A DNA stretch of 64,000 bases, taken from assembly GCA_051362555.1 (NCBI GenBank), contig CM120645.1:3720001-3784000 (forward strand), in the 5' to 3' direction. This document shows positions 1-45,769 of the stretch, in pieces. How positions within the stretch are numbered: the stretch's first letter is position 1; each line of letters opens with the position of its first letter. The position numbers were made by a program, and so were the translations under genes. Origin of the DNA: Lingula anatina. Lineage: Eukaryota; Animalia; Brachiopoda. The notes under the pieces are model-generated. The model did not search any database and was not told the DNA's origin. It saw only the letters and a program-made list of their open reading frames with translations.

Positions 1-448
1 CTCAGATTTCTGTATGTTTCTTAAAATCTCTACAAGATATTTCCAAATTGTCACTCAGTAGCAGCCATACAATACAATTGCATGTTGGTGGAGGACCCCA
101 GGAAATAATTAAATGTAATTTTTGACAATAAATTGTACATATCAAAGTACTAAATATAACTTTGTGGAACAAAAGAACTGTACCTGCTACTTTTTTTTTT
201 ACCAATTTATCATTTTGTAATTTCAGGTTACAAGAGTGTGCAAGGACCAAAAATATGGTTTTAGGATTGAGCTAATCATTTTTAGTTACCTCCTATTTAA
301 AGCAAATGTTTCCTATCAGGGGAGAGGTGGAATCCTGTTTTAAGTTGGCGATAAACATAACTACCCACTAAAACATTCAAATAGTTTTCACTATGAACAT
401 AAACATATAGAGCAGTGACACCTCTTCCTACTGTTCCATTCCTGAGAC

Positions 449-3400
449 ATGGCTTACAGACAAGTTGTAGCAGGTGGAGAGAGTCTTCATCTCTTACATA
501 AGCTACAGTTGTCTCCACAATCCAAGACACCAGACACTGTGCTGGAATGGACTAAGCTTGATATAAACAATGTTGGTATAGACAACTTACCAGAGTCCAT
601 TGACAGGTGTGCAAATGTTCAGAATATATCTGCAGTATATAACAGGTTATCTTCTTTACCACAGTCCATATCCAACCTCCCACATCTCACAGTGTTGGAC
701 CTATCCAGCAATGCCTTCAATACATTCCCCATAGCACTGTGTGGCTTGACTAACCTACAGGAACTGTTCCTGTCACACAACCAGATATCTGACATACCAG
801 TGGATATCAGCAGGTTGAAGGTGCTCAGAATATTCTCCCTCTCTAACAATGCCTTTACTACATTCCCCATAGCACTTTGTAGCTTGACTGACCTAAAGGA
901 GCTGTTCCTGTTAAATAACCAGCTATCTGACATACCAGAGGATATCACCAGGTTGAAGGTGCTCAGAATATTCAAGCTCCATAACAATGCCTTCACTACA
1001 TTCCCCATAGCACTGTGTGGTTTGACTAACTTAGTGGTGCTGCACCTGTCAGAAAACCAGCTATCTGACATACCAGTGGATATCACCAGGTTGAAGGTGC
1101 TCAGAATATTCAAGCTCCATAACAATGCCTTCACTACATTCCACACAGCACTGTGTGGTTTGACTAACCTAGAGAAGCTGCACCTGTCATACAACCAGGT
1201 ATCTGACATACCAGGGGATATCACCATGTTGACAAAACTTGAGGGACTTTACCTGTCAGACAATAACATCACTCACCTGCCACCTCAAATAAAGAATATG
1301 GAAAGTCTTAGACGACTAAATGTGATTGGTAATCCTTTGGTACAACCACCTATACATATTGCCGAGAGGGGACTAGGTGCCATCAAGAGGTATTTTGAGG
1401 CATTAACTGTCACCAAGGCAATCCAGTCAAGTAGAATACAGGTCAACTTACTTGGTGAAACAGAAGCAGGAAAAACTAGCATTTCACGCACACTGCAAAA
1501 TGGAAAGTCTACCCTTACAAAGATGGCAGACAGGACAAGAGTGGTGGAGCAGGGATTATGGGAGGCTCATGAAGATGAGACTGACCTGAATATTGGCTTC
1601 AACATCAATGACTTTGGTGGACATGACATCTACAAAATAGGACATCCCATTTTTATTAACAAATGTGGCTTGGTTTTCATCACTTTTGATCTGTCGAAAT
1701 ATGACCGAGAAGACAAGGCTCATTACCAGCTCTACATTGGACACTGGATTGACAAGGTGCAGGCACAGATGCCAGAAATACAAATAGCTCTAATTGGAAC
1801 TCATCTTGATGAGGTAGAAATCCAACATGTAGAAAACATGTGTTCTGCTATAAACAAGCAACATGAAGACCACATAAACAAAAAGAAGCAGTGGTATCTA
1901 GAGCAAAAGGAGAGCATTGAGAAGAGAATAAGAGAAACACCTGAAACCCAAGCATCTCTCCAACAGGCCTATCAAAGCAAATCAGATAAACTGCAGACCT
2001 TGTATGATCAAATGAAACCCATCCACAAGGATATTTTCAGAGTCAGTTCAAAAACCTGTGAAGGAATTAAAGATCTGCGAGACTACCTCATTTCTTCTGC
2101 CAGGAGAAATGCTGAAGTTTTGCCAGGTATGTGGGTGGAAGCAGCCAAGAATATATGCACCAAGAAAATTGAAGGCTCTGAAAACACACTTGACTGGGAG
2201 ATGATTGAAGACCTCATTCTGCAGAATGCACCTACATCTTGGAAAGAGGAGAATTCAGAGGAAGAAACAGAAAAAATGATATGTGACATCTTAAGTTTTC
2301 TTGCTCATCGTGGAGACATCATTTGGTTTGATAGATGTCCCTCACTGATGAAAGTAGTTTTCCATAAGCAAGAGGTTCTAGTTAATGTTCTCAAGGCAGT
2401 CCTGAGTCATGATCAAGAGGCCGTATCAGAAAAGCTACAGAAATCCATGAAGATTACTAAAACCAAAGCAAATGCCATGCATGGAGACATTTTCACCAGA
2501 GGGATCATATCCAAAGAGGCTATGGGCTGCCTGTGTGAGCCTTTCAAATTATCAAGTACTGAAGTCAATGTCATGATAGAAATGATGCAGAAACTGGAGC
2601 TGTGCTATCAAGTCCAGGAAGATGAATCCCTCCCATCCAATACCTCATACCACTTTCCATGGCTCCTCACTGAAGAAAGGCAACCTGAGCTAGACACCAA
2701 ATGGCCCAGCAAGGTGGCCCCAGACACCACACAACTTACCCTGCAGGTTCTCTTTCCATACAAATGTCCAGATGGCTTATATGAGAAATTTTCTGTTCGT
2801 CAGCACAAGCATCTTGGACTTATGAAGACCATGCGAATGGACTGGAAGGATGGGGTGTATGCAGAACTTAAGGGATGTAAAATGCAGGTGACACGAGGGC
2901 TACACCAGCCAAGTCCTGATGCAGTCAGCCAAGTCCCAGACTGGTTTATCAGCATTGCTGTCCGTGGATCACATCTCTCAGACATGTGGGATGCTCTCAC
3001 ACAAGGCCACAGTGACCTCATGGACATCATTAAAGAGGACTGGCCTGGGCTGTCATACGACAAATATCTGATGTGTCCCCACTGTGTGAATGAGGACAGT
3101 GAGCACCCAACCCTCTTCCCTGGGGAAATACTTGAAATAACCCTGGGGACAGCTTCCAAACCAAGACAGGTATTATGTGTCAATACTGGTGTCAACATTC
3201 CTGCAGACCTGGTCTACCCACCACACCTGGTCATGAGCTGGCAGGAAGGTAAGCACAGCAGTATAATGGCATTAGTGTAATGATTCACTGTTTCTCTTTG
3301 TTATATATGTATTTTTATTCTCAAAAATGTCTAACTAACCTGATCACCTGACCATGACATCCAAAAATTGTGCTAACAGGAAGGAGGATTTTATATTTAT

Positions 3401-3868
3401 CTTATTTGGATATCTTTTACAGGTCTCTTATCAGCAAATGACAGTTATTACCCGCTATTCAAAGGACTTGTTTCCATTTTAAGAAACGGAATAATAATTA
3501 TCCACAACATTTGCTATTCATACATCATGAAAGGACTGAATGTAATTTTTAACATTCTGTAATGTGTGGCAACATTATTTTCAGTTCTGAATGAAGTAAA
3601 ACCAAAGCTATGTGAAAACATCACAGTTCATGTTCTCCTGGACATGTTGGATCTTTTCCTCCAAGAAGGCATTATAATTGACCATGAATATAAATGGGTG
3701 AAGCCAGAGCTCCCTAAACACCAAACCTCAACTACCAGGGTGGTATGTCCAGAGAAAACTGCAGTATTCTTGGACATTCTTAAAACTAAAGGGGGAAGGA
3801 CATATGATTTATTAAGGGGATGCTTCATTGAAAATGGACAAAGTGAGCTTGCTACCCTCCTCAAATAG
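449..3868 (+). CDS. MFHAS1-like: ROCO protein copy 1: LRR(~12)-ROC GTPase-COR-CARD; predicted join(449..3248,3585..3868), ~1027 aa
   Basis: 943-aa ORF with 23-aa LRRs, P-loop GETEAGKTS, DFGG (G3), GTHLD (ROCO-type G4), VSSKT (G5), COR-like region and CPHC motif. Donor GAAG|GTAAG after 3248 is phase-1 compatible with acceptor ttttcag|TTCTG at 3585. Confidence 0.9.
3585..3868 (+). CDS. Terminal CARD/death-fold exon (type B) of ROCO copy 1
   Basis: VLNEVKPKLCENITV..LLDMLDLFLQEGII..EYKWV...EKTAVFLDILKTKG..YDLLRGCF.ENGQSELATLLK fits the six-helix CARD pattern; acceptor context is conserved in all copies. Confidence 0.8.
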
Positions 3869-4435
3869 ATGAAAGTGGCCAAGAGAACTGACTCTATGGA
3901 CTCACTCAGACTATGTGCAGCAGTCATGTTATCTAGATGGTACAAAATTTAATGTACTTTCAGTCAGCCACTTTGGCCACCTGACTTAATTGTTACAACT
4001 CAGTCTACATGGGGAATATTTCTGACGCGAAAAATAGTAATAGCTAGTCTAAGACTATCCTACTGTTTAAAGTGCCAAGTGTGGTATAATTAAAATAAAA
4101 GTATATAGCCATATCTGTATTTATACATGTAAATACAAAGACATAATTAACCAAAGAACAGTAAAATAGATTTAGTGCATTAATTTAAATTTGTTTCTTA
4201 TTAGGATTTATTTAGATAAATTAGGATCGTTGATGTAAATAATGACCCAGTCAAATCATTACTATATCAGTGGCAAATAAAGTGTTAGTATTAAGTGGAA
4301 TTTCATTGAATTAATAAATTATTTTTGAGAAATTAAAATTTTAGGATTAAGTATCTTTTTCATCCACTCAATACACCAACCACAAATGTTATGTGTAGTA
4401 TAACAACATAACATAATGGTTCGCCTGCTGCAGTT

Positions 4436-4648
4436 CCATATATAGACTTACAACCAAACCCAATGATTCACCTACCACAAAGAAGGTCTGTGTGTTATAG
4501 TCAGTACCATATGTAGACTTCCAACCAAACCCAATGTTTCACCTACCACAAAGAAGGTCTGTATGTTATAGTCAGTACCATATATAGACTTACAACCAAA
4601 CCCAATGATTCACCTACCACAAAGAAGGTCTGTGTGTTATAGTCAGTA
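4436..4648. repeat. Three tandem copies of a 71-bp unit containing the ABCD exon-9 donor
   Basis: tagactt(a/c)caaccaaacccaatg...cacctaccacaaagaaggtctg recurs at 4443, 4514 and 4585. Confidence 0.85.
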
Positions 4649-4743
4649 ACATGATCCATGCATCCTTGATAGCCTGGTAGATCTTGCTCTCCACATCAAT
4701 AGACACAGCACTGGTGTATTCATCTAACAAAGCAAAATGTGGC
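4618..4743 (-). pseudogene. ABCD2: ABCD1/2-like peroxisomal ABC transporter, exon-9 equivalent (Walker B / H-loop), decayed
   Basis: atttcag|[43 protein letters not shown]|gtaggt; 126 nt. Matches the ABCD motif [15 protein letters not shown]...ITHRPSLW with substitutions at conserved positions. Confidence 0.85.
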
Positions 4744-8336: not shown

Positions 8337-10377
8337 CTAGAGGATCAGAGAGGCGATACCGCCTCTGGATATTGTACCACCAGCTGGAGTAAGCGCATTC
8401 GTATGCCCCCCCCCCCCACCAAAAAAAAAAAAAATTGGACACCACCAGTCTTGTGCTTGACAAGCTCTATAAAATGCAATAAACAAGAGTTCTCAAAATA
8501 TGCAAAAAAAAAAAAAAAAGAAAAAAAATCAAAAAAACATAACAGTTAAAATGGTCCAATCAAGGAGATGTTCAAATTGACCTGTATTTTCCTAACACTG
8601 ATCACTCCTGTGATTTTCTAGACAATAGGCCTATTGGTTTTCCTTGAAATGCATTATCAGTATTGCATATACCGGTATGCTGACAAAAGAGAAAACCTAG
8701 GGACAACACTGGGCAGATCTCTGCTAGTTTTGAAGATATGAAGGGCAAGAAAATATGCAGAGTTCAGTTTGTGATAAAAAGTAGGTCAAAGGTCAATTTC
8801 AAGGTCACAGTATATGACTTCCTATATAAGTTTAATAGTAGCTATGGGCATTTCTTTACCAATGTTGGAGATATGAAGGCCAGGAAACAAGCAAAGTGCA
8901 GTTCATCATAAATAGTAGGTCAAAGGTCAATTTCAAGGTCACAGTAAGATTGCCAGTATATGACTTCCTATTCAAGTTCAATAGTAACTTTGGACCTATC
9001 TCTGCCAGTTTTCGAGATATAAGGGATAAAAAAATTTGCAAAGTTCAGCTTATGTTGAAAAGTAGGTCAAATGTCAATTTCAAGGTCACAATAAGAATGC
9101 CAGTGTATGACTTCCTATTCAAGTTTAATAGTAACTATGGGTGTATCTCTGCCAGTTTTGGAGATATAAGGGATGTAAAATTTGCAAAGTTCAGTTCATG
9201 GTGAAAAGTAGGTCAAAGGTCAATTTAAAGGTCACAGTTAGATTACCAGTATATAACTTCCTATTAAAGTTCAATAGTAACTATGGGTGTATCTCTGCCA
9301 GTTTTGGAGATATAAGGGCTAGAAAATTTGCAAAGTTCAGTTCATGGTGAAAAGTAGGTCAAAGGTCAATTTAAAGGTCACAGTTAGATTACTTGTATAT
9401 AACTTCCTATTCAAGTTCAATAGTAACTATGGGCGTATCTTTGCCAGTTTTGGAGATATAAAGATCAGAAAACTTCAAAGTGCAGTTCATCATGAAAAGT
9501 AGGTCAAAGGTCAATTTCAAGGTCACAGTTAGATTACCAGTATATGACATCCTATTCAAGTTCAATAGTAACTATGGGCATATCTCTGGTAATTTTGGAA
9601 TATTTAACATTTCCCCCCCTGAATATTGCGATGTTGTAATTTTTGATATAGCGCAATGCCTAAACCATATCTAAAACAAAAAATGGACACCACCTCCAGT
9701 ATTGCACTTGACAAGTTTTACAAAATGCAAGGAACAAAAGGTCTCTGGCATTTACCATTCCAGAATAAAAGCAAGTTTTCAGTTTCGGTATCTAATGGCT
9801 GCTTCTCCCGTGAAAATGCACCGATTGACCCCAAACTCCCAAAGATGAAAGGAGTCCCCAATTGTAACCCCTCACTATAACAGGAGAGCTTAGATCTGTG
9901 TAGTTTCCAAAAAATAGCACAAACAAATATTTTTTTGCAGAAAATTCCCATTTTTAGAAAATGTTGGCTTGTTTGACCTTGAAAAAAAGGTCAAAAGTCA
10001 AATCCAAGGGCATATTTGGAATCTCCAGATATGACTTTCGGTCAGGCTTCTGTGGTAATTTTTCCCATAATTCCTTTGGTTTGGGAGATATTTAGCCTTG
10101 AATTTTCAAAAATTTTGACAAGGGTGCATTTCAACAAGTGTCACGCCCAGGCCAATGCACCGACAGAGACAAAAAAACCAGGGTGTTCAAGTTGAGATCA
10201 TATGTGACCTAAATCCGAGAGATGGGGGCACAGGTCCTGGTGGTCTAGGAGGAGAAGCGGTAACGGTGACTTGTTTCCGGCGCCCGACTGCGGAGCCGCA
10301 GGAGCCGGCGGAGCTGTACGAGAACGGGGCGGGACTAAAATCATGAGTACCGCCAGCGTATACGCTGGTGGTACTAA
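8337..10377 (-). mobile_element. Non-autonomous Helentron/Helitron2-type element (HINE) with internal tandem repeats
   Basis: Absent from paralogous units (empty site cagtaaagaaa|taaatatctgaga at ~36368). It sits in an A run with no TSD. 11-bp subterminal inverted repeats at 8374-8384 and 10364-10374, a 30-bp palindrome at 10346-10375, a stem-loop at 8349-8366 and a minus-strand 3' CTAG end. Confidence 0.8.
8700..9600. repeat. ~146-bp tandem repeat, ~6 copies, inside the HINE
   Basis: aggtcaaaggtcaatttcaaggtcaca-type motif recurs at 8783, 8917, 9064, 9210, 9356 and 9501. Confidence 0.9.
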
Positions 10378-13082: not shown

Positions 13083-16000
13083 ATGGATTCCAGACAAGTA
13101 GCACAAAAGGAGAGACTTGATCTCTTACATAGTCTACAGTTGTCTCCGCAGTCCAAGACACCAGACACTGTGCTGGAATGGACTGAGCTTGATATAAGCC
13201 ATGCTGACATAGACAACCTACCAGAGTCCATTGACAGGTGTAGAAATGTTACGAGGATATATGCAATGAAGAACAGGTTATCTTCTTTACCACAGTCCAT
13301 ATCCAACCTCCCACACCTCACAGTGTTGGATCTCCATAACAATGCTTTCACTACATTCCCTATAGCACTGTGTGACTTGACTGACCTAGAAGAGCTGCAC
13401 CTGTCAAAAAACCAGCTATCTGACATACCAGTGGATATCAACAAGTTGAAGGTGCTCAAAATATGCCAGCTCAGTAACAATGCCTTCACTACATTCCCCA
13501 TAGCACTGTGTGGCTTGACTAACCTAGAGGAGCTGTTTCTGGGTGACAACCAGCTATCTGACATACCAGTGGATATCACCAGGTTGAAGGTGCTCAGAAT
13601 ATTCTGGCTCTCTAACAATGCCTTCACTACATTCCCCATAGCACTGTGTGACTTGACTGACCTAAAAGTGCTGAACCTGTCAAATAACAAGCTATCTGAC
13701 ATACCAGTGGATATCACCAGGTTGAATATGCTGAAAATATTTCAGCTCAGTAACAATGAATTCACTACATTCCCTATAGCACTGTGTGGTTTGACTAACC
13801 TAGAGGAGCTGGGTCTGGGTGACAACCAGCTATCTGACATACCAGTGGATATCACAAAGTTGAAGTTGCTCAGAATATTCAAGCTCCATAACAATGCCTT
13901 CACTACATTCCCCATAGCACTGTGTGGCTTGACTAACCTAGAGGAGCTGTATCTGGGTGACAACCAGCTATCTGATATACCAGTGGAAATCACCAGGTTG
14001 AAGGTGCTCAGAATATTCAAGCTCTACAACAATATGAATGCCTTCACTACATTCCCCATAGCACTGTGTGGCTTGACTAACCTAGAGGAGCTGCATCTGG
14101 GTGACAACTTGATATCTGATATACCAGAGGATATCACCAGGTTGAAGGTGCTCAGAATATTCAAGCTCCATAACAATGCCTTCACTACATTCCCCATAGC
14201 ACTGTGTGGCTTGACTAACCTAGAGGAGCTGTATCTGGGTGACAACCAGCTATCTGATATACCAGTGGATATCACCAGGTTGAAGGTGCTCAGAATATTC
14301 AAGCTCCATAACAATGCCTTCACTACATTCCCCACAGCACTGTGTGGTTTGACTAACTTAGAGGAGCTGCTCCTGTCAGAAAACCAGCTATCTGACATAC
14401 CAGTGGATATCACCAGGTTGAAGGTGCTCAGAATATTCTTGCTCAAAAGCAATGCCTTCACTACATTCCCCACAGCACTGTGTGACTTGACTGACCTAAA
14501 AGTGCTGAACCTGTCAAATAACCAGCTATCTGACATACCAGTGGATATCACCAGGTTGACAAAACTTGAAACACTTAACCTTCAAGGTAATAACATCACT
14601 CACCTGCCACATCAAATTAAGAATATGGAAAGTCTTAGACAACTAAATGTGAATGGCAATACTCTGGTACAACCACCTAAAGATACTGCCAACAGGGGAC
14701 TAGGTGCCATCAAGAGGTATTTTGAGGCATTAACTGACACCAAGGCAATCCAGTCAAGTAGAATACAGGTCAACTTACTTGGTGAAACAGAAGCAGGAAA
14801 AACTAGCATTTCACGCACACTGCAAAATGGAGAGTCTACCCTTACAAAGAAGGCAGACAGGACAAGAGTGGTGGAGCAGGGATTATGGGAGGCTCATGAA
14901 GATGAGACTGAGGTGAATATTGGCTTCAACATCAATGACTTTGGTGGACATGACATCTACAAAATAGGACATCCCATTTTTATTAACAAATGTGGCTTGG
15001 TTTTCATCACTTTTGATCTGTCTAAATATGACCCAGAAGACAAGGCTCATTACCAGCTCTACATTGGACACTGGATTGACAAGGTGCAAGCACAGATGCC
15101 AGAAATACAAATAGCTCTAATTGGAACTCATCTTGATGAGGTAGAAATCCAACATGTAGAAAACAAGTGTTCTGCGATAAACAAGCAGCATGAAGACCAC
15201 ATAAACAAAAAGAAGCAGTGGTATCTAGAGCAAAAGGAGAGCATTGAGAAGAGAATAAGAGAAACACCTGAAACCCAAGCATCTCTCCAACAGGCCTATC
15301 AAAGCAAATCAGATAAACTGCAGACCTTGTATGATCAAATGAAACCCATCCACAAGGATATTTTCAGAGTCAGTTCAAAAACCTGTGAAGGAATTAAAGA
15401 TCTGCGAGACTACCTCATTTCTTCTGCCAGGAGAAATGCTGAAGTTTTGCCAGGTATGTGGGTGGAAGCAGCCAAGAATATATGCACCAAGAAAATTGAA
15501 GGCTCTGAAAACACACTTGACTGGGAGATGATTGAAGACCTCATTCTGCAGAATGCACCTACATCTTGGAAAGAGAAGAATTCAAAGGAAGAAACAGAAA
15601 AAATGATATGTGACATCTTAAGTTTTCTTGCTCATCGTGGAGACATCATTTGGTTTGATAGATGTCCCTCACTGATGAAAGTAGTTTTCCATAAGCAAGA
15701 GGTTCTAGTTAATGTTCTCAAGGCAGTCCTGAGTCATGATCAAGAGGCCGTATCAGAGAAGCTACAGAAATCCATGAAGATTACTAAAACCAAAGCAAAT
15801 GCCATGCATGGAGACATTTTCACCAGAGGGATCATATCCAAAGAGGCTATGGGCTGCCTGTGTGAGCCTTTCAAATTATCAAGTACTGAAGTCAATGTCA
15901 TGATAGAAATGATGCAGAAACTGGAGCTGTGCTATCAAGTCCAGGAAGATGAATCCCTCCCATCCAATACCTCATACCACTTTCCATGGCTCCTCACTGA

Positions 16001-17310
16001 AGAAAGGCAACCTGAGCTAGACACCAAATGGCCCAGCAAGGTGGCCCCAGACACCACACAACTTACCCTGCAGGTTCTCTTTCCATACAAATGTCCAGAT
16101 GGCTTATATGAGAAATTTTCTGTTCGTCAGCACAAGCATCTTGGACTTATGAAGACCATGCGAATGGACTGGAAGGATGGGGTGTATGCAGAACTTAAGG
16201 GATGTAAAATGCAGGTGACACGAGGCCTACACCAGCTAAATCCTGATGCAGTCAGCCAAGTCCCAGACTGGTTTATCAGCATTGCTGTCCGTGGATCACA
16301 TCTCTTAGACATGTGGGGTGTTTTCAGACAAGGTCACAATGACCTCATGAACATCATTAAAGAGGACTGGCCTGGGCTGTCATATGACAAATATCTGATG
16401 TGTCCCCACTGTGTGAATGAGGACAGTACACAGCCAACCCTCTTCCCTGGAGAGATACTTGACCTAACCCTGGGGACAGCTTCCAAACCAAGACAGGAGA
16501 CATGTGTCAACACTGGTGTCTCCATTCCTGCAGACCTGGTCTACCCACCACACCTGGTCATGAGCTGGCAGGAAGGTAAACACAGCAGTATAATGGCATT
16601 GTTTTCTTTATTTTGTTTCTCTTTGCTCAACAATTTTGTCAAACTGCCCTCACCTAAACATGACATCCAAAAAGCATACAAACAAGAAGGTTTTACATTC
16701 ATTTGTTTTCATTAAGCGCTGCATTTTAGCTATAAAAACATAACCCCAATGATTGTCTTCAGACACTTGGTACTGTATTTTTTAAAAACTGTTCATGTAT
16801 TATCTCCATGTGCTTAGTTAACATGTAAATAACTGTTCTTACAGCAGTACGGATTTTTTCTGTTAAATCTTTTCTATTCTTCTACACTTGCGTCTGCCCA
16901 TGTGTCAAATCCTTATTTTAATATTGAAATCATCCACTAAAATTCAATTTTTACATAATGACAACAGATATTTTATCTGTCATGAATACCATTAAAAAAT
17001 GGCTGTTTTATTGTTTTCAGTTCTGAATAAAGAAAAACCAAGCCTTTGTGAAAAAATCACAGAACCCTGTCTCCTGGACATGTTAAATGAGTTTCTCCAA
17101 GAAGGCATCATCACCCTTCGTGAAGCTGAAATGGTGAGAGCAGAGCCTCCTCAACACCATGACCAAACCTCAACTACCAGGGTGGTATGTCCAGAGAAAA
17201 CTGCTGTCTTCCTGGATATTTTAACCAGGAAACCTGTCAGGGCACATAATACTCTGTGCCGATGTCTTCAGGAACAAGGACAGACTGATCTTCTTAAAAT
17301 GATCCAGTAA
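13083..17310 (+). CDS. MFHAS1-like: ROCO protein copy 2: LRR(~22)-ROC-COR-CARD; predicted join(13083..16575,17021..17310), ~1260 aa; alternative last exon 20344..20627
   Basis: 1210-aa ORF with the same ROC motifs; donor GAAG|GTAAA after 16575; phase-1 acceptors at 17021 and 20344. Confidence 0.9.
17021..17310 (+). CDS. CARD exon type A (ROCO copy 2)
   Basis: VLNKEKPSLCEKITEPCLLDMLNEFLQEGII...EKTAVFLDILTRKPVRAHNTLCRCLQEQGQTDLLKMIQ*; acceptor ttttcag. Confidence 0.8.
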
Positions 17311-17334
17311 GGGGACTTTCCTAGACTGATAATC

Positions 17335-17445
17335 CAACTTTTCTAAGTATTTACAAAATGAAAGGGGACAAGGCATTTAATTTATTAATGGAATACCTCA
17401 AGTAATATGGACAAAGTGAGCTTGTTTACCTCTTTAAATATAGCA
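17335..17445 (+). pseudogene. Remnant of CARD C-terminal half
   Basis: TFLSIYKMKGDKAFNLLMEYLK*YGQSELVYLFK resembles the type-B CARD end and is followed by type-B 3'UTR-like sequence; paralog at ~46678-46786. Confidence 0.65.
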
Positions 17446-17712
17446 AATGCAGTTCAACTGACTGTATGGACTCACCACCTGCAGCAGTCATGTCATGTAG
17501 TTGTATTCTCAACTGTTCAGTAGTCTTGGATGTGCTTAAAAGATTTGACCATTCTGGCCTGCAATATCGTTTTGACAGTCAAAAAAATTCAAATAGTTAA
17601 TCATTTGAACTAAGAAACTAGCCATGTACCTACAATTCACCGGTTGACTGGATGCCTAATAATGCATCAGACCAAGAGCCATTTAATCTATCAGAAGAGA
17701 AACGAAAAGCAG

Positions 17713-17905
17713 CAAGCATTTGAAGGTTTGACCAATTTACTGCAGTTAGTTCTGAACAATAATGACATCAAGTCCATCCCTACCACCTCCTTCAGCGGCC
17801 TGCCGTCTTCCTTGACATACTCAAAACCAGAGGAGATAAGGCATTTGTTTTATTGAGGAAATGTCTCACTGAAAATGGACAAAGTGAGCTTGTTTCCCTT
17901 TTAAT
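17713..17905 (+). pseudogene. Foreign 'typical'-class LRR fragment fused out of frame to a second CARD C-terminal remnant
   Basis: QAFEGLTNLLQLVLNNNDIKSIPTTSFSGLP, then in another frame AVFLDILKTRGDKAFVLLRKCLTENGQSELVSLL; paralog at ~47062-47255. Confidence 0.65.
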
Positions 17906-18237
17906 ACCTGTGGCAGTCATGTCCTGTAGTTGATGTTCCCAATGTTTATTAATTCCTACTGTAGTGAAACACTTAGGCCTAATTGGCTGTATACATCTAG
18001 CTTTTTGAAAAGAAAAACAAACAATTAATCTTGACCAGATAGACTAAAGAACTGTAATTCCTGGCAGCTGCTTTACCCAGTGACCATCATCAATCCATAT
18101 AATCCATAAGTGAGAATGAGGACATGAGAGCTGATCATCATCAATCTAGAGACCACCTTACATGGAAATGATGGAGCAAGAATGGATGAAGAGTGAACAT
18201 TGGCAGGGATTATAATGATAGCTGTGGTATGCTACTT

Positions 18238-18405
18238 GGTGGGAAGAGGAGAATGGTTGGAAGAGGAGCTAGGTGGGAAGAGGAGCGTAGTGGGAAGAGG
18301 AGCCTGGTGGGACGAGGAGCATGGTGGGAAGAGAAACATGGTGGGAAGAGGAGCGTGGTGGGAAGAGGAGCATGGTGGGAAGAGGAGGGTGGTGGGAAGA
18401 GGAGT
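18238..18405. repeat. 17-bp purine-rich minisatellite (ggtgggaagaggagcnt), ~10 copies
   Basis: Visible direct repeats; about 5 copies in the paralog at 47596-47680. Confidence 0.85.
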
Positions 18406-19369
18406 AAGGTATGCAGTTGGCCACCTACAGGTTAGAACATGTTATATGATAGGCCAATATTGTTTTATTAGATGGTGATGTCTGTCTAGTTTTTTATCAG
18501 TAATGGAGGGGGAGGATGGACAGCAGAACATGTGATATGATAGGCCAATATTGTTTTATTAGATGTTGATGTCTGTCTAGTTCTGTATCAGAAATGGAGA
18601 GGGAGGGTGGAGGAATACCTTACACTGAGATGCTGCTTAACAAATGTGAAAAGTTATTCTTAATTAGGAATGCACTATGCTGCATTAGATTAAACCCCCT
18701 TATATGAACTTATAATACTACAACAACAGCTATAGGTCTTTATTGCCAGCCCAATATTTTAGTGTCACAGAGAAATGGGGCTTTAAGGATGGAAAACCTT
18801 TTCTTGTAAATTTGAGCACACAAAACAGCTGGTGAAGTTTGTTGCTGGATTCTTAATAAAATGTTATAACTTCTACAGGTAAGACCACTTTAGCCAGGGA
18901 CTTGATGTCATATAATCCATCAGATGAGGAATGGGAAAGCTGGAACTCCAACCAGTTCCTGGAGTATCAGGGACATGTGAAACCCAAGTTCCAGTCATAT
19001 CCTGCCTACGACAAGATGATGTGGAGGATGACAATTCAAAACAGTCAGTGCAGTGACATGTGACAAACACCAGCCAGCTGCAGAGTCAGGTTTGTACAGT
19101 TATATATTTAAAAATTTGTTACCCCTTTTTACATTTTCAGAATTGGTAAAAAGTTGTGAAGACAATTTAAGCAAAATGTATCTGGCATGTTACCTGCCTG
19201 AATAAAGACCATACAAACCTTAGGGTGAAAAACTATTAGTAAGGTATACTCTATGGTGAGCCAAAATTACAGACTGACACCAATTTTATATTATACATCA
19301 AACTATAGAAAAAATTACTTTCATGTTATCCAGTGGAGTTAAAACATATTTGTTCTCTTCTTTCCACAG

Positions 19370-19631
19370 AACACAGTATCAACAGTTTATCTCTGCTAAG
19401 CAGTGCATCAGACAGTACTCCTCCCAACACACAGAGCACCAGCAGCACTGGACTGAACTCTCTGGAAACCTTCAACCCTAATCCTAAACTAGCCAATCAC
19501 AACGGGGCCCAGGACAGGTCAACAAGCCCAGTGGCCATGTTTCACCATCTGCTGCAGTGGTTTAACATCAGCTCCGTGCCTCACACCAGATGAACAGCAG
19601 ATATAGTTATCACATACAACAGACAATCCAG
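19370..19631 (+). other. Exon-like Ser/Thr-rich segment between the two CARD exons (phase-1 acceptor; stop at 19593)
   Basis: tttccacag|AACACAGT...CAATCCAG|gtatt; paralog at 48650-48911; a second exon-like segment at 18879-19089. Confidence 0.4.
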
Positions 19632-20343
19632 GTATTAATTATTTGGATGACTTTCTCTAAGCCATTTCAATGGCTAATTGTCTTTGTTTATAGATGCATA
19701 ACATTTTTGAAAATGCTTTTGAAACAGTGGCAGTATTAATCGTTACATGTACTGCTTGAAATTAATAAAACAGGGCAAGGTCTGTATTAAGAAAAATAAT
19801 TTATTTTACTGGAAAAAAACACCCTGCATTTTAATTATTATTTGGTAATTTGGACTTTTTTGTACAGAACAATCTTATTCAATTAATGCTTGCCTGCTTG
19901 CCTCCTTGTCACAGTACTCATGTGTCCCCGGACATAATTCTCATACCACATCTCACACATTGTCAACACAATAAAGTAATGCGTTTAATTATTTGTTGAT
20001 TATTTTCAAAATGGTCACTTAACATTATGATAATGTGGGGTAGTAATCCTTCACTTTACAGTTGTCTTTGGTAGATGTTTAGACAAGTGATTTAGACAAA
20101 TAATACACATTGTATTAGCTGGGTGGGTCCAATTTTGCTGGGCGTTCTTGCTTAAGTGCAATCAGTGGAATCAGCTTAATCAGCAAATGACAGTTATTAC
20201 CCCCTAGACAAAGGTTTTGTTTTCATTTTAAGTGATGGAGTAATATAAGTAATCATTCACAACATACATTTGCTATTTATACATCTAAAAGGACTGGATG
20301 TAATTTTTAACATTCTGTAATGTGTGGACAACATTATTTTCAG

Positions 20344-20627
20344 TTCTGAATGAAGTAAAACCAAAGCTTTGTGAAAACATCACAGTTCCTGGTCTCCTGG
20401 ATATGTTGGATGTTTTCCTCCAAGAAGGCATTATCACTGACCCAGAATATGAATGGGTGAAGCCAGAGCTCCCTCAACACCAAACCTCTACTACCAGGGT
20501 GGTATGTCCAGAGAAAACTGCAGTATTCTTATATATTCTCAAAACTAAAGGGAACAATGTATTTGATTTATTAAGGGAATGCCACAGTAAAAATGGACAA
20601 AGTGAGGTTGCTACCCTCCTTAAATAG
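20344..20627 (+). CDS. CARD exon type B (alternative terminal exon of ROCO copy 2)
   Basis: Open 284-nt frame, same acceptor and phase as 3585..3868. Confidence 0.7.
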
Positions 20628-21245
20628 AATAAGTGACCAAGAGAACTGACTCTATGGACTCACTCAGACTATGTGACTATGTGACATTTATTCAGTCAAT
20701 CACTTTGGCCACACTGATTTAAAATATCTCAGTCTAAATGGGAAATCTTTTTCACAAACAGTAATAGACTATCAGATTGTTCAAAACGCCAATTGTTGTA
20801 TAATTAAAGTATAGCAAAAATGTACACATGTAAATACACAGGTATAACCAAAGAACAGTCAAGTAGAATATATTGCATTAAAATAAATGTGCTTTTTATT
20901 GGAATTTATTTAGATAAATTAAGATTGTTGATGTAAATAATCACTGAGTCAAATCATTACTATGCCAGTGGCAGTACAATGTGGTAGTATTAAACAGAAT
21001 TTCATTGAATTAATAAATTATTTCTGAGACATTAAAATTTTAGGATTAAGTATCTTTTTAGTCCACCCAATACACCAACCACAAATGTTATGTGTAGTAT
21101 AACAATAAAACATAATAGTTTGCCTGCAGCAGTAGCTCATAGAGCAGGGTGACCAAACAAACCCAATGATTCACCTACCACAAAAGACTTAAGTGATTTC
21201 TCCTTAATTTTCCCTCATTTCAGTCAAGGTAGTTGTGGAAGCTGG

Positions 21246-22104
21246 CTATCCTCCGTTTCTCTCCTCCAGATAACACATCCTTCCAGTCACTCTCAGCTCC
21301 ACAGCCTGGAACACAACAACTCTTAATGGATAATGAATTAAAATTAATATATATTTTTTAAATTTTCAAATACATTTTGAATATTTCAGACAAAGTGTGA
21401 TATAACTAGTCTTAATGAAATAAAGTAATAAAGTGGTTTTAGATTATAAATGATTTAGATTTGCAGATATCATCCCTTAACATAATTTTGAAATGAGATA
21501 TCCACTAGCGAAGGAGACGGGGATTTGACTTTACTTAACTCTAAACTCCCAAGCCAATAAAATTAAAACAAGATATAGTTATTATAATTAAATGGAAACA
21601 TATCAGATGACATGATTAATTAGGATTAAGATGCGTTACTCCTGTGATGAACATAGATAATGTATATACATATGAAAATAGAAACTGTATCAATCAAAAA
21701 CTTTACATATTTTCTGCAGATATCTTAGTACCCTCTTCTCTCTGTATAATATGTTGCAGGTTTACACATCTGAATATATCTTTGAGTGGTGTTTTGGGTG
21801 GTGGTTTGAGTAGGCGACCATTATACACAGCCACAGACCACTTAGAATACAGAACAGGGAGCTCTTACCACAGCCATTACAGCCTGTTACATGTATCAGC
21901 AGGTGCATGTTGTGGTCCATCTGGAAATATCATGCTGAATATGAAAGCAACCTGCCTCTTTACCAAACAAAGCCACTCAGTAAATTTAAGTAAAACAAAA
22001 ATACAGTATGGCAGTTCTGAGCCCGGGGCGACTTTTAGAACAGCTAGGGAGCTCTTACCAAAGCCATTGGAGCCTGTCATTAGCAGGTCCATGTTGTGGT
22101 CCAT
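21246..22104 (-). pseudogene. ABCD2: ABCD1/2-like exon 8 (partial, 21246-21305), fused exon 6/7 (~21731-21920) and a duplicated exon-6 start (~22046-22104)
   Basis: [10 protein letters not shown]; degenerate Walker A (NGCGKSS / TGSNGFGKSS); KPPP and NLQHIIQREEG, with frameshifts. Confidence 0.75.
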
Positions 22105-24542
22105 CTGGAAATATGCTGATTTCTGCAACCTGTCTCTTTACCAAAAAAGCCACTCGGAAAATTAAAAGTTTGTCAGTTCTGGGGTGAACTTCATGTGTCG
22201 GACAGTGACAGGATGGTGACAACACAGACAGACAGAAAAATCAGAATATATAGAGAAACTTACAGTGACTGTATATAAAACCAGCATAACTTTGAAAAAA
22301 TGCCCCAATCAGGCTGATTTTCAAATTCTACCTGTATTTTATTATCAATTATCAGTTCCATAAGTTTGAAGAAAAAAAGACAAATGTTTTTTCACTTACT
22401 GTGTTTTCACTGAAAGTGCATGGCAATGGCATCAGTGACAACAGATGCAGATTACGGCTATATTGACAGACACATCTGTCTCTGCATAAAAAGTGTTGCT
22501 TTCCGAAGTATTAAAAAACAGTTCATTTAAAAAAGAAGCATTTTTTGGTTTTGCTTCATCCAGAACTGAAAATAATGTTGTCCACACATTACAGAATGTG
22601 CAATCAACTTAACTGTATGACATGGCATTAAGTATAAAACAGAAAAGCTGGTGGTTATAAGATTAGTTGCAACAAGAGGTGGCGTTCCCTGTTCAGGCGT
22701 AGCCAACTGCACTCAGCCAGAGTTCCCCCCTCCCACAGTTGGGTTGATTTTTGTAGACCAGTTGTGTCTATGGGAATGGAGCTTTAGAAACAGTCTATTT
22801 TTAATCTTCAGTATGAGTTAAGATACATTATACTTATTCTGTGACACATATTCAAGACTGCAGTAGAACGTGTTAAAAAGATAGTTTTCAATTTCGACCA
22901 ATTTATTGTCCTTGTTTCAGGCTGTTAGACATGGTTTCCAGTTGGTGTGTGTAAAAGAACCTTGATATAGAAGACCTAGATTATGCTCTCAAATGAATGT
23001 ACTCTTGCTTTCTTCTACAGCTCTCAGGCTCAACAGTTTTATCAGAAACAAGTTTTTTTCCTCTGTGCATGAACAAGTGTGCGCGTGTGCATGCACGTGG
23101 GTTCAACTACCATCCCAACCATGTCAAAGTAAAGAGGGTTGCAATCAACTGACTGTCTTTTGAAGTTGCCCATATAAATGTCAAAATTCCTAATATACTA
23201 TAATTATAGTATCACAACAGGTAAAAACAAATGACAGATAAATGTGCAGTGCTCAATATAATCCATTTCATGTAGTTAAAATACTGGTATGTTAATAAGC
23301 TAACTAATACTGATGGAACACTTAGACAATGGCAGGAGATTATAGATTATTCATTGAGATCTAGGGAGAAATTATATTACATCTGAACCACATTTTATTT
23401 ATCTATTTTTTTATGTGCATGTGTATAAGTATGCCTTCTGTGAAGAAGATGTTTTAAATGCCTTCTAACTTATACTCTGACTACAATGCTTTGTTATATA
23501 TTATGAAAATTCTGACTTTATTTCTGAAAACTAGTTTTAAAAATGTTTATCAAATATTAAAGAATTAAACTTATTCCACAGATTTATTTTTATAATACTG
23601 GTGCTCTCCTTGAATGAACAAAGTAAAAATTGAAAATGAAAATCAAATTTTATACTATAATATATATGATATCATACATGTATCACAATTCTATCAAAAA
23701 GACATAATTTAAATATAAATAATAATCATTAGTTTCAGGAGCATAAAGAATTGTTATATAAATACAGTTTATCATGAAAACTAGACAAAATAAATAAAAT
23801 GGTTTTATCCAGGAGTTGAACTTCTAGCTACTGTATACATTTGAAACACCCAATCAGAAATTCCTCATCCATTTAAAAGTTGACAGGTAAAAATATTGGA
23901 AATAAAAACAGCCTTACTTCAGAATAATCTTGTTCAAGATTTGTCATTTCATATCAACTATTACCAGAAAACTAAAGTATGACATGATAAAAAGCAGAAA
24001 AATTACAATTTTCTATAGCAGATTAAGGATCTGAAAACTTTTGGAGTTTTTATCTGTGCAGACTGCGTGGAACATCAAAAGGTATCACTTATTTTCATTT
24101 CTAAACAAAGAAAACATGTACAATAGTATTCACATCAATAGATACACTTTAACTATTACATTCATAAGTTATATTTCAATAGTTGAGGTTGTAACCAGAT
24201 TATAACACAACACTAGGTTAGTTCTTTTGTTATACATCATTGATTTTTGGAACAACAATTTCTCCACAAGTACACTACAACATACAGTTTTTTTTTAACA
24301 TTCTCTGCATTATGTATTTGGACATCTTTGGCACCTAATAATTAACAATTACACACAGGATTATACATCTCTTCCTACCATTTTTATACACTTATATCAT
24401 ATATATCATGTGCTATGAATAATTGGTAAGGATGCTCTTCTTGTTCAACTCTAGAGAACAATTCCTTGTCATCCCTTTCACACCTCTCCCTCTCCATCTC
24501 TTTTCGATCTCTAGCTTACACCAAAAAGGAAACAAAAGCAGA

Positions 24543-24576
<34 letters not shown>

Positions 24577-24688
24577 AGCTGACCATGGTGCATTATCAAC
24601 AGTGTCCCGTAAGAGCCCTGACCCCTTGGGTTGAATATACTGACCATAGTCAAGCTCAGTCCTAATATGCACAGTCAACAGTGTCCAA

Positions 24689-24920
24689 TCACAGCACTGA
24701 CGCCTCTGGCTGTATCAGATGACCATGGTCCAGTAACACAGAGTCCTCCCCCAAAATGGAGCACAACTCCTGTAGCCTCTGCTGCATCTTAGGTATACCT
24801 GCCAGCTGAGCCTCCAGTCCCTGCTTCTCCTCATTGAGAGACAGGCGTGTGGCAGTGTCCAGCTCCTCTAATCTCCAGCCTACCTCACCGTCAAACTGGA
24901 GCAAATGAGTGTGGAACTTC
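24689..24920 (-). pseudogene. ABCD2: ABCD1/2-like terminal exon 10 (open frame, orphan)
   Basis: ttttccag|[64 protein letters not shown]...*. Confidence 0.85.
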
Positions 24921-27871
24921 CTGGAAAATTGATAAATATTCAGTATGCTGCAGAGTTTACTAAGTGAAGATCTTTGGAAGTAATTGTGAATTGCAGAAAA
25001 ATGTGATTACTGAATACAAAATGAGTTTTGGAAGTATGGAAATAATTTAAGAAAGAAAAAAAATTGGGGACATTATGAAGTACAGTCAAGTATCTGTGAA
25101 CCAAGTACCAGACTCATTTTCAGTAGAGACATAAAAATCTGAGAGTAATGTAGAACATTTCCATTGCTCTTAAACCTGTTCTCTGTCCTAGCTTTACTCT
25201 TTCTAATGTCTTATGATACCTCTTTTCAGCAGTGACCAATTATTTTGACTCTAGTAAGTTAATCATGACCCCAGAACTATGTCACTTCAATGTACAAATT
25301 GATATTACTTCAATAACAGTAAGACAGTGTCATGCAGGGTCTTGTGACATATTTAATCTACCTCCTCCCTGTGTACACACACCAGTAGAGGTGAACTGGG
25401 AGAGATAGGGAGACCAAACTTTAAATAAATATCTCGCCAGAACGATACTTACAAGAGACTTCACATTTTAATGTTACAACATTTTCTCCAACCAAAAGCA
25501 AAGATTTTTTTCATAATAAAATCTCAATAGCAAATTATATTTTACATCAGGCTCACTGCTTTGAGGACAAGGCACTTTATATTATTATCTCTAGTGACAT
25601 ACCGGAAGGCAAAATCAACATCACATGATGTTATTTGCTGAGGCCATCTTTTTTTCTGCATTTTTAAGTGTGGCCAGAAGTTTGAGATGGCTATAAAATT
25701 CTATCATACTACCTGAGGTTGTTGACAGCTTGGACTGAGCAAGAACTTGTATTTCAAAGTAAGTCCATCTTGATGATAGATATTTCAAATTATTATAAAT
25801 ATTTAAATGGATAAACACCTAAATTGGGGATCTTTTTCTTTCATATCCATAAATGGGCATTTCTATTTAGTTGATTAAATTTGATAATATCAAAATAAGT
25901 TTTTTTTTTTAATTTGCTATTACCCTATGAGAAATTTTTGGGAGTATCTTCATTCTTTTTAATTGATAAAATTTTGCATAAAATCTAGACGCCTGGCTTG
26001 AGACAAAAATGTTCATTATATCACTTAATATTTTCATCCACTACAGTTACAGTGCAGGGCCAACTGAACCAGAAGTTTATAGAGCCACCTTCTGAGTATG
26101 TACCAGCAGCAGGTTTTGTGAGTCACCTTACAGCAGAGTAACTGTAACTTGTAAACAGGTAAGGTGGAAAGATTTGTAGGAAAATATTATATAATACTTT
26201 AAGTTATTCCATCTACAGCAGTAACAGAATACCATCAGCTCCACCAGTTGTTCATATAATGGTAGAGGCACCTTCTTAAAATTCCCATGGCCCTGCATCT
26301 TACATTTCTGTTAATTGTATTTATTTATTTTTTTTATCTCACATGCCAAGAGGTACATGGGACTTCACTGAAACATCTTTCATTAATTGTAAATAATTAT
26401 TAACCCTGGTTGTAATTTAATGCAATTTTACTTCTTTATTTCTATGGATTGAGTGTGTTTGCCATTCAATGTCAATTAAATGGATCTTGTTTATTTACAG
26501 GCAGTTGGTTTGAGGATGTTTTGTGTTATTTTGTGTATAATTTCATGTTAAAACATCCTATAGGTGACTTGAAGCATTACACAATTATCTGCTTAAAAAC
26601 ATTCAAACTGGTCATGAGCTAGCTAGTAGGACAGCTGAAGTGGACCCTATTGAAGCAGCTAACCAATAAACTGATATCTATACTTGTTCAAACTTGTCCT
26701 ATTTTATCATGCTTGATTTTCTATTTCTATGTTTTCTTCTGCTGGTCCTTTTTACTAATGGCTTTCAACAGTACAAATGTGTTTTTTTTCCAGAGAGCAT
26801 AATATTCTTCCTGTACCCTTGTCCAGATGCCTATCATACCATCCAAAACTAAAAACCTTAAGTCAGAAGGTATATAATGTTATTTATACTGAAACTTTTT
26901 TATCTTGACTACAAGATAACTGTAATGACATGAATCAATTTGAATCAACTGTTTAAACTCCTTTCAATTTACTCAATGTTATAATTTACTTCTAAACCTT
27001 CTTAGGACTTCAAAACTTCTATTTATGCTGAATACTTTTATGCCACAAATCAATTTTAACCAACTCTTTAAACAAAAAATACTTTCAAGTAATAAACTCA
27101 AAAATTCATTAGCTCTTCATGAATTACTTAGTTTTTATACCATTACAGTAATAAAACAATGTTTGAATAGTTTTGTGCAAGATAGACACCTGCTTTTTCT
27201 GTTGATTTTTGCTTGCCAGTAAAAACACTGAACATATTTTTTATTCTTAATGTTTTTTTTTTTTTTTTTTTTTCAGAAAACCTGTACTCTTGTCTATATC
27301 CACATTACATCCCATGAGGTAATAAAATTTACTGCCTTATACACAAATATCTAACTTTCACATTATGCAAAGTGGTTAAAATGCACCAAAGAAATATATG
27401 TTCACAACTTGTGCCAAATGAAGAGTACTTCTGTCACCAAAACATTTCTCTACATTTAAGGTATTTACAATATATTTCCAGCTTGTCACTGTCTACAGTA
27501 ACAGTCATACTATACAGTCATACTATACAGGGGAAATAATTAAATGTAATTATTGACAACAAATCCCACATATCAAACCACTGAGTATAGCTTTTTAAAC
27601 AAAAGAAGTACCTGCCACTTTTCTACCAATTCATCATTTTGTAATTTCAGATTACAAGAGGATTCAAGGACCAAAAATATGGTTTTAGGACTAAGTTGAT
27701 AATTTTCTTTAGTTACCTTTCTTATTTAAGCAAATTGTCTGTTACCAGGGGAAAAACTGCTAAAATTGGTGACAAACACATAATTACCAACTCAATCCTT
27801 CAAATATTATAACCTATGAACATAAGCATATAGAGCCGTGACACTTCTTCCTACTAATCCATTCCTGAGAC

Positions 27872-30800: not shown

Positions 30801-31208
30801 ATGTGCCTGTCTGTCAAAGAGTTCACTCAGATCTACTCATTGTATTAGCTGGCTTGGTCCAACCTTGCTAGGCATTCTTGCTAAAGTGCAATCAGTTGAA
30901 GCAACTTAATCAGCAAATGATTGTTAATTACCCCCTTGATGCTTAAGGAGGCGTGTTAGTCTATTAAGCTGATTCCACTGATTGCCCTTTAGTGAAAATA
31001 CCCATCAGAGTTGGACAAACCCAGGTAGTATGATGTGTGAATCTGAATGTAGTCAAAGGCCTTGTTTTAATTTAAGAAATTGAATAAGTAATCATCCACA
31101 AAAACTGTTATTAGTACATCAAGACAGGACTGAGTGAAATTTTTTACATTCTGTAATGTGTGGACAACATTATTTTCAGTTCTGGATGAAGTAAAACCAA
31201 AGCTTTGA
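27872..31208 (+). CDS. MFHAS1-like: ROCO protein copy 3: LRR(~12)-ROC-COR with truncated CARD; predicted join(27872..30641,31180..31208)
   Basis: 952-aa ORF; donor GAGG|GTAAG after 30641; the CARD exon has an in-frame TGA at 31206-31208. Confidence 0.85.
30825..31050. mobile_element. Old MITE-like inverted repeat in the COR-CARD intron
   Basis: ~85-bp imperfect arms (cattgtattagctggcttggtccaa...caatcagttgaagcaacttaat / attaagctgattccactgattg...gttggacaaacccaggtagtatgatg); also at 61012-61245. Confidence 0.6.
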
Positions 31209-31463
31209 CAAAATATCACAGTTCCTGGTCTCCTGGACGTGTTGAATCTTTTCCTCCAAGAAGGCATTATCACTGACCATGAATTTGAATGGGTGAAGCC
31301 AGAGCTCCCTCCACACCAAACCTCAGCTACCAGGGTGGTATGTCCAGAGGAAACTGCAGTATTCTTGGACATTCTCAAAACTAAAGGGAAAAGGGCATTT
31401 GATTTATTAAGGGAATGCTTCATTGCAAATGGACAAAGTGAGCTTGCTAACCTTCTTAAATAG
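31180..31463 (+). pseudogene. CARD exon type B with premature stop (TGT>TGA, 10th codon)
   Basis: AAG CTT TGA CAA versus AAG CT(T/A) TGT GAA in paralogs; the rest of the frame is open to 31463. Confidence 0.8.
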
Positions 31464-45572: not shown

Positions 45573-45769
45573 GGCTGTATTCCCAGAGCTTTTAGATTGA
45601 TCTGTCCCCGCGGGGAGTCTAACTAGATTACTGTCAGATAATCCGGCTTAAATGTCCATCCCGCCTACTACAAGCTGTAAGGGGGTATTTAACTTTCGTG
45701 TCCGCCCCACTGACAGCTGTTTAGCGTGAACCCCTAAAGTAGATCTATCTAATCTCTGGAAATGAGGTC
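45573..45769. mobile_element. Tourist-like MITE nested in the TIR element
   Basis: Reverse complement of 31699-31911; TTA TSD. Confidence 0.75.

Follow-up and report, generated by a model that had tools for sequence, protein, structure and literature searches.

Within a 64,000-nucleotide stretch of Lingula anatina DNA (the window; assembly GCA_051362555.1, contig CM120645.1, positions 3,720,001 to 3,784,000), five Roco genes of the type leucine-rich repeat (LRR)-Roc-COR-CARD are arranged in tandem, and positions 540-1350 encode the LRR domain of the first one. We put the probability at about 0.68 that this domain serves as the variable sensing part of an NLR-like intracellular immune receptor, one that diversified in the germline through concerted evolution and positive selection. 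The locus combines this architecture and the splicing to a CARD exon with an excess of replacement substitutions at five exposed codons per repeat, a mosaic structure of the genes and a variable number of repeats. The immune function itself, and with it a ligand, a partner, GTPase activity and induction, is a prediction from sequence.

Five long open reading frames (ORFs) lie on the + strand of the window, each with LRR, Roc and COR regions according to the ORF list and Pfam. Roc is recognized with E values between 3e-11 and 4e-9 and COR-B scores over the cut-off in all five genes, COR-A remaining below Pfam's cut-off. Judged by the usual definitions of the P-loop, DxxG and G4 motifs, the G motifs GETEAGKTS, DFGGH and GTH[LV]D are intact in all five translations. 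The AlphaFold model of gene 1 (pLDDT 87) has its best fold matches with the Roco protein of Chlorobium (C. tepidum; 6hlu, E 4.5e-33) and with LRRK1/2. An earlier note on this DNA described the repeats and left the Roc-COR and CARD domains unnamed; it is these domains that identify the protein. No NACHT or NB-ARC match was found by Pfam in the five genes, the switch being Roc-COR. The gene products would work like NLRs without belonging to them, and GTP binding and hydrolysis as well as a nucleotide-dependent dimer cycle are predicted for these Rocos. The parts of gene 1 are as follows.

449-3248, + strand: large coding exon, LRR-Roc-COR, MFHAS1-like (ORF; Pfam LRR, Roc, COR-A and COR-B; fold match to 6hlu and LRRK1/2)
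506-712, + strand: three non-repeated N-terminal LRRs, whose between-gene variability also lies at the x positions defined below
713-1264, + strand: homogenised array in which four A halves and B halves take turns, each half 69 nt long, the last B half grading into the cap type
758-778, + strand: hypervariable patch of the first A half, unit codons 16-22; equivalents start at 827, 896, 965, 1034, 1103, 1172 and 1241
1265-1432, + strand: last LRR and C-terminal cap
1433-1810, + strand: Roc GTPase domain with the motifs GETEAGKTS (P-loop), DFGGH and GTHLD
2261-3136, + strand: COR-A (weak, under the Pfam cut-off) and COR-B (Pfam)
3249-3584, + strand: GT..AG intron, removed in RNA; the joint is present in 5 reads of X17 and one X1 contig
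3585-3868, + strand: CARD exon, in frame once spliced (PF00619, 26.6 bits against a cut-off of 23.9)

The array consists of two alternating 23-amino-acid LRRs, A and B, which together give a period of 138 nt (46 amino acids). In gene 1 the tandem array extends from 709 to 1232 (3.8 copies, 88% matches) and it recurs in the four further genes; the earlier note had described this 138-nt LRR pair. The estimate of about 87 LRR units was also accurate: 77 units and two N-terminal LRRs per gene give 87 over the five genes, with 12 to 27 per gene. Entropy and the ratio of nonsynonymous to synonymous rates (dN/dS) were determined on 32 A and 23 regular B halves (55 of the 77 units), irregular and cap units being excluded and partly tested separately. 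We call x codons the unit positions 16, 17, 19, 21 and 22, and scaffold the remaining positions. The x positions of LRRs face the solvent on the concave and adjoining side. Variation is concentrated there, as had been claimed, and not evenly spread: amino-acid entropy is 2.11 bits at x against 0.40 elsewhere in A halves (exact p 3e-5) and 1.39 against 0.49 in B halves (p 0.004), and the proportion of nonsynonymous differences (pN) is 0.41/0.31 at x against 0.073/0.085 elsewhere. All 12 motifs that had been quoted for these positions are present in the window, only six of them inside 540-1350 and the rest in genes 2-5. The placing of the x residues in the beta-sheet is correct in part, since the beta strand of the AlphaFold model comprises positions 17-19 while positions 21-22 lie just beyond it.

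The scaffold had been described as almost unchanged even at silent sites. The majority codon is indeed used by 864 of the 905 scaffold codons, but the fourfold-site divergence between genes, 0.102 (confidence interval 0.05-0.16), is indistinguishable from the 0.125 (0.10-0.15) of Roc-COR, with a bootstrap P(scaffold >= Roc-COR) of 0.24, and the two blocks singled out as nearly constant occur in exact form in just 6 and 4 of 32 copies. What the scaffold shows is homogenisation and not invariance, and the idea of special invariant recombination anchors was rejected because the silent divergence of the scaffold matches that of the rest of the gene. Array repeats at different positions diverge no more than the genes do, though the A/B alternation is common to subfamilies that are only 34-60% identical in Roc-COR. 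The 46-amino-acid pairs are 0.81-0.89 identical to the majority sequence of their own gene by an in-house measure that differs from T-REKS Psim, the criterion for fungal high-internal-conservation (HIC) NLRs being at least 0.7. Distant Lingula subfamilies possess homogeneous A/B scaffolds of their own, 35-42% identical to those of the window against 82-86% within, with the same variability at x. The array of gene 5 contains a 336-nt higher-order repeat (3.4 copies, 94%) around a shortened junction. At this junction (57347-58144) a B half is fused to a piece of the first array LRR; it has been amplified about threefold, and the protein P0001 has it once. An assembly artefact was rejected as an explanation of the array, since the copies differ and X1 and X2 contigs match it. 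One X1 contig differs at 912, altering an x21 residue from L to S.

A fixed-site codon model gives a dN/dS (omega) of 2.95 at x codons and 0.66 elsewhere (likelihood-ratio test (LRT) statistic 34.1, p 5e-9). When x codons are allowed a separate silent rate the values become 2.13 and 0.72 (p 0.013), the extra rate itself (1.47-fold) not being significant (p 0.26). Along the minimum-spanning links between units there are 85 replacement and 8 silent codon differences at x codons, against 79 and 39 in the scaffold. Among the 33 best-supported read differences inside LRR units, 18 fall on x codons, where 22% would be expected. The five LRRs per gene that have no array copies display the same contrast (x-site pN 0.43 against 0.069), which argues that the variation comes from point change and selection, whether or not there are repeats to swap; cassette swapping, previously put forward as its source, does not account for it, the linked patches being only about 3-4 codons long.

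A rival explanation is a birth-and-death process driven by recent tandem duplication, combined with relaxed constraint at exposed residues, which would make the repeats young and let the x sites drift. In its favour, there are recent amplifications (gene 5 has the 336-nt triple, and identical A halves recur inside gene 2 and inside gene 5), the A halves group according to gene, a conservative estimate of dN/dS at x is 0.85, and a scaffold omega of about 0.7 indicates weak constraint. However, pN at x, 0.31-0.45, amounts to about three times the divergence at silent sites, which is 0.11-0.13 in the scaffold and 0.148 in Roc-COR; drift cannot outpace neutral change. Neutral simulations with strong recombination, in which new trees were drawn every one or three codons, never reached an omega of 2.95 (maximum 2.53) or an LRT statistic of 34 (maximum 19.1) in 75 runs, and the B halves are not sorted by gene. 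We therefore regard this explanation as unlikely.

Targeted mutagenesis of the patch, either adenine mutagenesis of the kind carried out by diversity-generating retroelements (DGRs) or regional hypermutation, would load changes onto the same codons. Several x codons are constant at the third base and variable at the first and second (pi 0.50, 0.35, 0.28), resembling mutated AAY codons, and silent variation in x codons is raised. On the other hand, the leucine codon L20, which lies between x19 and x21, is not raised in fourfold divergence (30/465 in A halves, 0/231 in B halves) and silent third-position adenines have changed in 1 of 227 cases against 45 of 886 for other bases, which together make regional or adenine-directed mutagenesis improbable. 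No template repeat was found outside the ORFs of the window. DGR-like mutagenesis was rejected on the last two grounds, and among the explanations weighed here targeted mutagenesis is the one to which we give the least credence.

Recombination among repeats and genes, as anticipated in the earlier note, finds support. The pairwise homoplasy index (PHI) test on coding Roc-COR sequences gives p 0.0002. Throughout Roc-COR, gene 2 agrees with gene 1 to 98-100%; at the 3' end it resembles gene 4 (89-98%), and gene 1 there resembles gene 5 (85-97%). The genes are mosaics. Within the arrays, B halves are unsorted by gene (Kst 0.015, p 0.43): the nearest unit belongs to another gene in 15 cases and to the same gene in three, with five ties, and an identical 24-nt B cassette is shared by genes 1, 2 and 5. 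PHI on x sites yields p 0.003-0.016 at windows of 20-30 nt. Six of 36 x-codon pairs are associated at p<0.05 (uncorrected, n=23), five of these six within 15 nt. Exchange is thus supported at the scale of genes and for B halves, less so for A halves, and recombination appears to reshuffle the x diversity but does not create it.

A number of results weigh against diversification by positive selection and exchange in an intact receptor. Measured on the silent sites of the x codons themselves, dN/dS is 0.85 (column-wise minimum changes, silent-maximising paths), and the pairwise ratio is 0.73 in A halves, with 3.8 in B halves. The counts below 1 arise because silent differences in x codons are raised about 2-fold, an increase that is only partly explained; it could come from multi-step paths, repeated origins of one residue, or a deeper ancestry at selected codons. 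The earlier claim of diversifying selection on exposed residues is therefore upheld by the codon models and the simulations but not by own-silent-site counts, which give 0.73-0.85 for some sets. The simulation fits are rough and some LRT values were negative. Sorting by gene is seen among the A halves (Kst 0.20, p 0.0002), PHI gives no significant result for the scaffold sites by themselves or for all sites of the units together, and the weak linkage could equally be explained by recurrent mutation, with n=23. The longest exact matches between arrays, 39-89 nt, are not longer than the 72-467 nt of Roc-COR, from which it follows that there is no long fresh conversion tract. Finally, the CARD exon of gene 3 is interrupted.

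Variable lymphocyte receptors (VLRs) of lamprey and hagfish are surface or secreted receptors, somatically assembled in a deaminase-driven process from an incomplete germline gene and a reservoir of cassettes. A comparable programme, by which immune cells would assemble or shuffle LRR cassettes with the conserved flanks as anchors, had been envisaged for the present arrays. The homologous flanks of 45-55 nt around each patch would be a suitable substrate, and RNA reads show repeat orders and cassettes that are absent from gene 1. Yet such odd reads are expected given at least 35 paralogues, and the diversity described here sits in assembled genomic DNA. The five genes are complete and LRR repeats outside ORFs were not found in the 64-kb window (0 of 1718 nucleotide hits, no tblastn hit), so that a VLR-like cassette reservoir was rejected. 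X2 contigs tile gene 1 from 560 to 1440 in five pieces with 0, 0, 1, 0 and 0 differences (gaps at 970-990 and 1086-1112), and X1 contigs, from a different study, hold 300-674 and 1113-1402 with no difference; X1 or X2 may be the source of the assembly. X9 contigs carry the first cassette of gene 4 unchanged. For X9 and X10 the shares are 0.20 and 0.15 and the pieces differ by 10-29 letters, which has no bearing on presence or absence. The same idea has been proposed, untested, for brown-algal ROCOs (PMC3341825). A VLR-like system in Lingula appears very improbable, though somatic change in a minority of cells may be compatible with the data.

The only GT..AG joint listed within 300-4300 connects 3248 with 3585, and the whole LRR array of gene 1 forms one continuous ORF and exon, in agreement with the statement that the arrays are contained in a single exon; those of the other genes also lie in continuous ORFs. 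The PF00619 cut-off was passed by all six CARD exons scanned, the seventh, behind gene 3, having an early stop. There are two CARD types, about 58% identical, which are paired with near-identical Roc-COR regions in genes 1 and 2; this implies that outputs were swapped by a crossover near the end of the large exon. The CARDs of P0001 and P0002 look chimeric between the two types. Raw RNA reads matching the family numbered 35 in X11, 25 in X14 and 831 in X17 and were mostly 90-95% alike, which indicates that the family is transcribed without establishing this for gene 1 itself. Around position 407, 15 X17 RNA reads depart from the window sequence while one X1 contig continues unspliced; the upstream non-coding exon hinted at by these 15 loose read ends was not found within the window. 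The N-terminal 64 codons of gene 1 (449-643) have more nonsynonymous than synonymous differences between genes (pN 0.171, pS 0.126), the opposite of Roc (0.051 and 0.183).

The remaining large exons and CARD exons of the window are arranged as follows.

13083-16575, + strand: large exon of gene 2; array 13344-14591, about nine pairs, one 6-nt insertion
17021-17310, + strand: CARD exon behind gene 2, second CARD type
20344-20627, + strand: extra intact CARD exon with acceptor site, without a Roco exon of its own
27872-30645, + strand: large exon of gene 3 (end approximate); array 28136-28687
31180-31463, + strand: CARD-like exon behind gene 3 with an in-frame TGA near its start; the large exon of gene 3 is intact
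39062-41981, + strand: large exon of gene 4; array 39323-40012
42429-42718, + strand: CARD exon behind gene 4, second type
49608-49891, + strand: extra intact CARD exon with acceptor site, a copy of the exon at 20344
57017-60818, + strand: large exon of gene 5; array 57278-58834
61369-61652, + strand: CARD exon behind gene 5

A segment of 9.2 kb occurs twice with 95% identity, once behind gene 2 (17308-26450) and once behind gene 4 (46650-55741). Each copy contains a partial CARD (17793-17903; 47151-47255) and the second intact CARD exon (20344; 49608). These CARDs may be alternative last exons or remains of lost genes, or the copies may reflect an allelic duplication in the assembly. Gene 4 is also followed by a 3.9-kb insertion (42718-46650) with 144-bp inverted ends (42768-42911 and 46447-46589, 90%), which is likely a non-autonomous element; its internal frames presumably resemble the C-terminal part of a LINE (long interspersed nuclear element) protein. 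Two non-coding tandem arrays are present at 8808-9603 (146-nt period, 5.5 copies) and 4431-4652 (71-nt period, 3.1 copies).

A Roc-COR search returned 37 proteins among 5050 candidates, 35 of which are Lingula anatina proteins named MFHAS1-like or uncharacterised, with 31-88% identity; PF00619 is present in 22 of these 35. We called an array homogenised when the median best scaffold identity was at least 0.7, a cut-off of our own, in proteins with at least six LRRs. By this measure 16 of the 31 Lingula relatives with at least six LRRs are homogenised, in three subfamilies with different scaffolds. In one relative, P0025, the Roc-COR profile matches in three stretches, which suggests a duplicated COR region. 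A profile search of 1.84 billion representatives gave 4087 matches, and among the 135 more distant proteins listed, 90 have at least six LRRs, 13 of which are homogenised. Six of the 11 looked up among these 13 are named amphioxus proteins. Homogenised amphioxus Rocos have a two-LRR scaffold of their own with variation at positions 19, 21 and 22. A Roco clade that contains amphioxus proteins (P0049, P0059, P0067, P0069, P0070, P0074, P0076 and P0079) carries as many as 57 homogenised LRRs, with C-termini of the caspase, OTU or GT4-conflict type: GT4-conflict in P0049, P0067, P0069 and P0070, OTU in P0059 and P0070, and caspase in P0076. On the Roc-COR tree of 70 chosen rows (all homogenised proteins with a P-loop region except P0024, plus some others), a quick version with long-branch warnings, the homogenised label changes at least 11 times, gains and losses not being told apart. 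No vertebrate MFHAS1 was identified among the 70 rows.

The pattern of diversification is itself known from other systems, and the part that seems new is its animal, single-exon, CARD-tipped version. The closest likeness is with the HIC NLRs, whose archetype is HNWD het-d/het-e of Podospora (Paoletti 2007, PMC1805685; Ament-Velasquez and Saupe 2026, PMC13449251). In these, near-identical sensor repeats pass from one position to another inside a gene and among genes, as the Lingula repeats probably do; likewise, four or five hypervariable residues at the interface are under positive selection, the number of repeats varies, and a switch NTPase is joined to a death-type output; a concerted loop of repeat exchange and selection was proposed for the Podospora genes (Paoletti 2007, PMC1805685). 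The fungal repeats are, in contrast, of the WD40, TPR or ANK type where Lingula has alternating pairs of 23-amino-acid LRRs, and a NACHT or NB-ARC switch takes the place of the Roc-COR GTPase. In Lingula the domains also follow one another in the opposite order (sensor first, CARD last), and the host belongs to the animals. Repeat number differs among the paralogues of the window (12-27 LRRs). Brown-algal LRR-ROCOs (Zambounis 2012, PMC3341825; Teng 2024, PMC11378527) likewise form an expanded LRR-Roc-COR family with 23-amino-acid LRRs, positively selected concave-face sites, repeat shuffling and gene turnover. They are described as having one LRR per 72-bp exon, spare exons in introns, alternative splicing and LRR-ROC-COR alone, whereas the Lingula array occupies one exon with no spare repeats in the window and is followed by a CARD exon.

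Prokaryotic AP-GTPase (Roc)-COR counter-invader proteins (Kaur 2021, PMC8195603) share fast-evolving N-terminal LRRs, the Roc-COR switch and a variable C-terminal effector, and their GT4 effector is also present on the amphioxus relatives found here; the account given of them is bacterial and does not include a CARD output or animal expansions. MFHAS1/MASL1 and the Rocos of Trichoplax, some of which have CARD and death domains, possess the same LRR-Roc-COR core (PMC4104024). The Lingula relatives are called MFHAS1-like in databases, a name that need not imply orthology with MFHAS1. Humans have four Rocos, among them MFHAS1; it lacks a CARD as described and is said to be confined to deuterostomes, a statement that does not cover the Lingula family (PMC4104024). 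MFHAS1 has also been linked to signalling in innate immunity. In Aplysia, Roc-COR occurs on TIR and MyD88-like proteins (PMC9334734). The VLRs resemble the Lingula arrays in having LRR modules with conserved ends and variable concave residues (PMC3341825); the Lingula genes differ in being complete, in their cytoplasmic GTPase architecture and in having no reservoir in the window. A literature search, most subscription papers being beyond reach, brought up no account of a Roco family, in Lingula or in amphioxus, whose LRR arrays are homogenised and under selection; architectures of this kind may appear in the supplements of PMC8195603 and PMC13449251.

Lingula lives a solitary life, which bears on another possible use of the same DNA mechanism: allorecognition, the sensing of a polymorphic endogenous partner as by het-d/het-e of Podospora, or a guard role, instead of direct sensing of pathogens. 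HNWD, the closest mechanistic match, is an allorecognition system (PMC1805685), a CARD output would fit cell death, and a ligand cannot be named from sequence alone. At least 35 paralogous clusters with turnover of genes would nevertheless suit an arms race with pathogens better than a few het loci, and a solitary life speaks against allorecognition, so we hold such a role to be rather improbable.

In the favoured reading, that of an immune sensor diversified in the germline, point mutations at x codons would be favoured by selection, and unequal crossing-over in the germline, together with short conversion events among the similar 138-nt pairs of one gene or of different genes, would spread and recombine the x variants. 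The same events would keep the rest of the repeats alike, so that these stay able to recombine. A ligand bound on the concave face might then shift the nucleotide and dimer state of Roc-COR, following the model in PMC4104024. This shift could bring the CARDs together and lead to recruitment of a CARD adaptor or a caspase.

How invertebrates obtain diversity in recognition without antibodies is an open question, for which this locus offers a case open to measurement: at least 35 Roco GTPases tipped with a CARD make up a family whose single-exon LRR arrays evolve like fungal HIC NLRs, and the same design occurs on amphioxus Rocos. More broadly, it is conceivable, at odds a little short of even, that Rocos constitute a class of intracellular immune receptors of animals that has gone unrecognised and stands alongside the NLRs, and in which self-reshuffling LRR arrays arose several times (three Lingula CARD subfamilies; the amphioxus caspase/OTU/GT4 clade). 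That, in addition to such a class of several origins, the arrays of Lingula undergo rearrangement in somatic cells of the immune system, so that every individual has a repertoire of its own, is highly doubtful. If the favoured reading is correct, Roc-COR would be a second switch module, beside NACHT/NB-ARC, for animal receptors that connect a sensor to cell death, and the Lingula proteins, as compact relatives of LRRK2 and MFHAS1, would lend themselves to the question of how ligand binding by LRRs drives the Roc-COR cycle.

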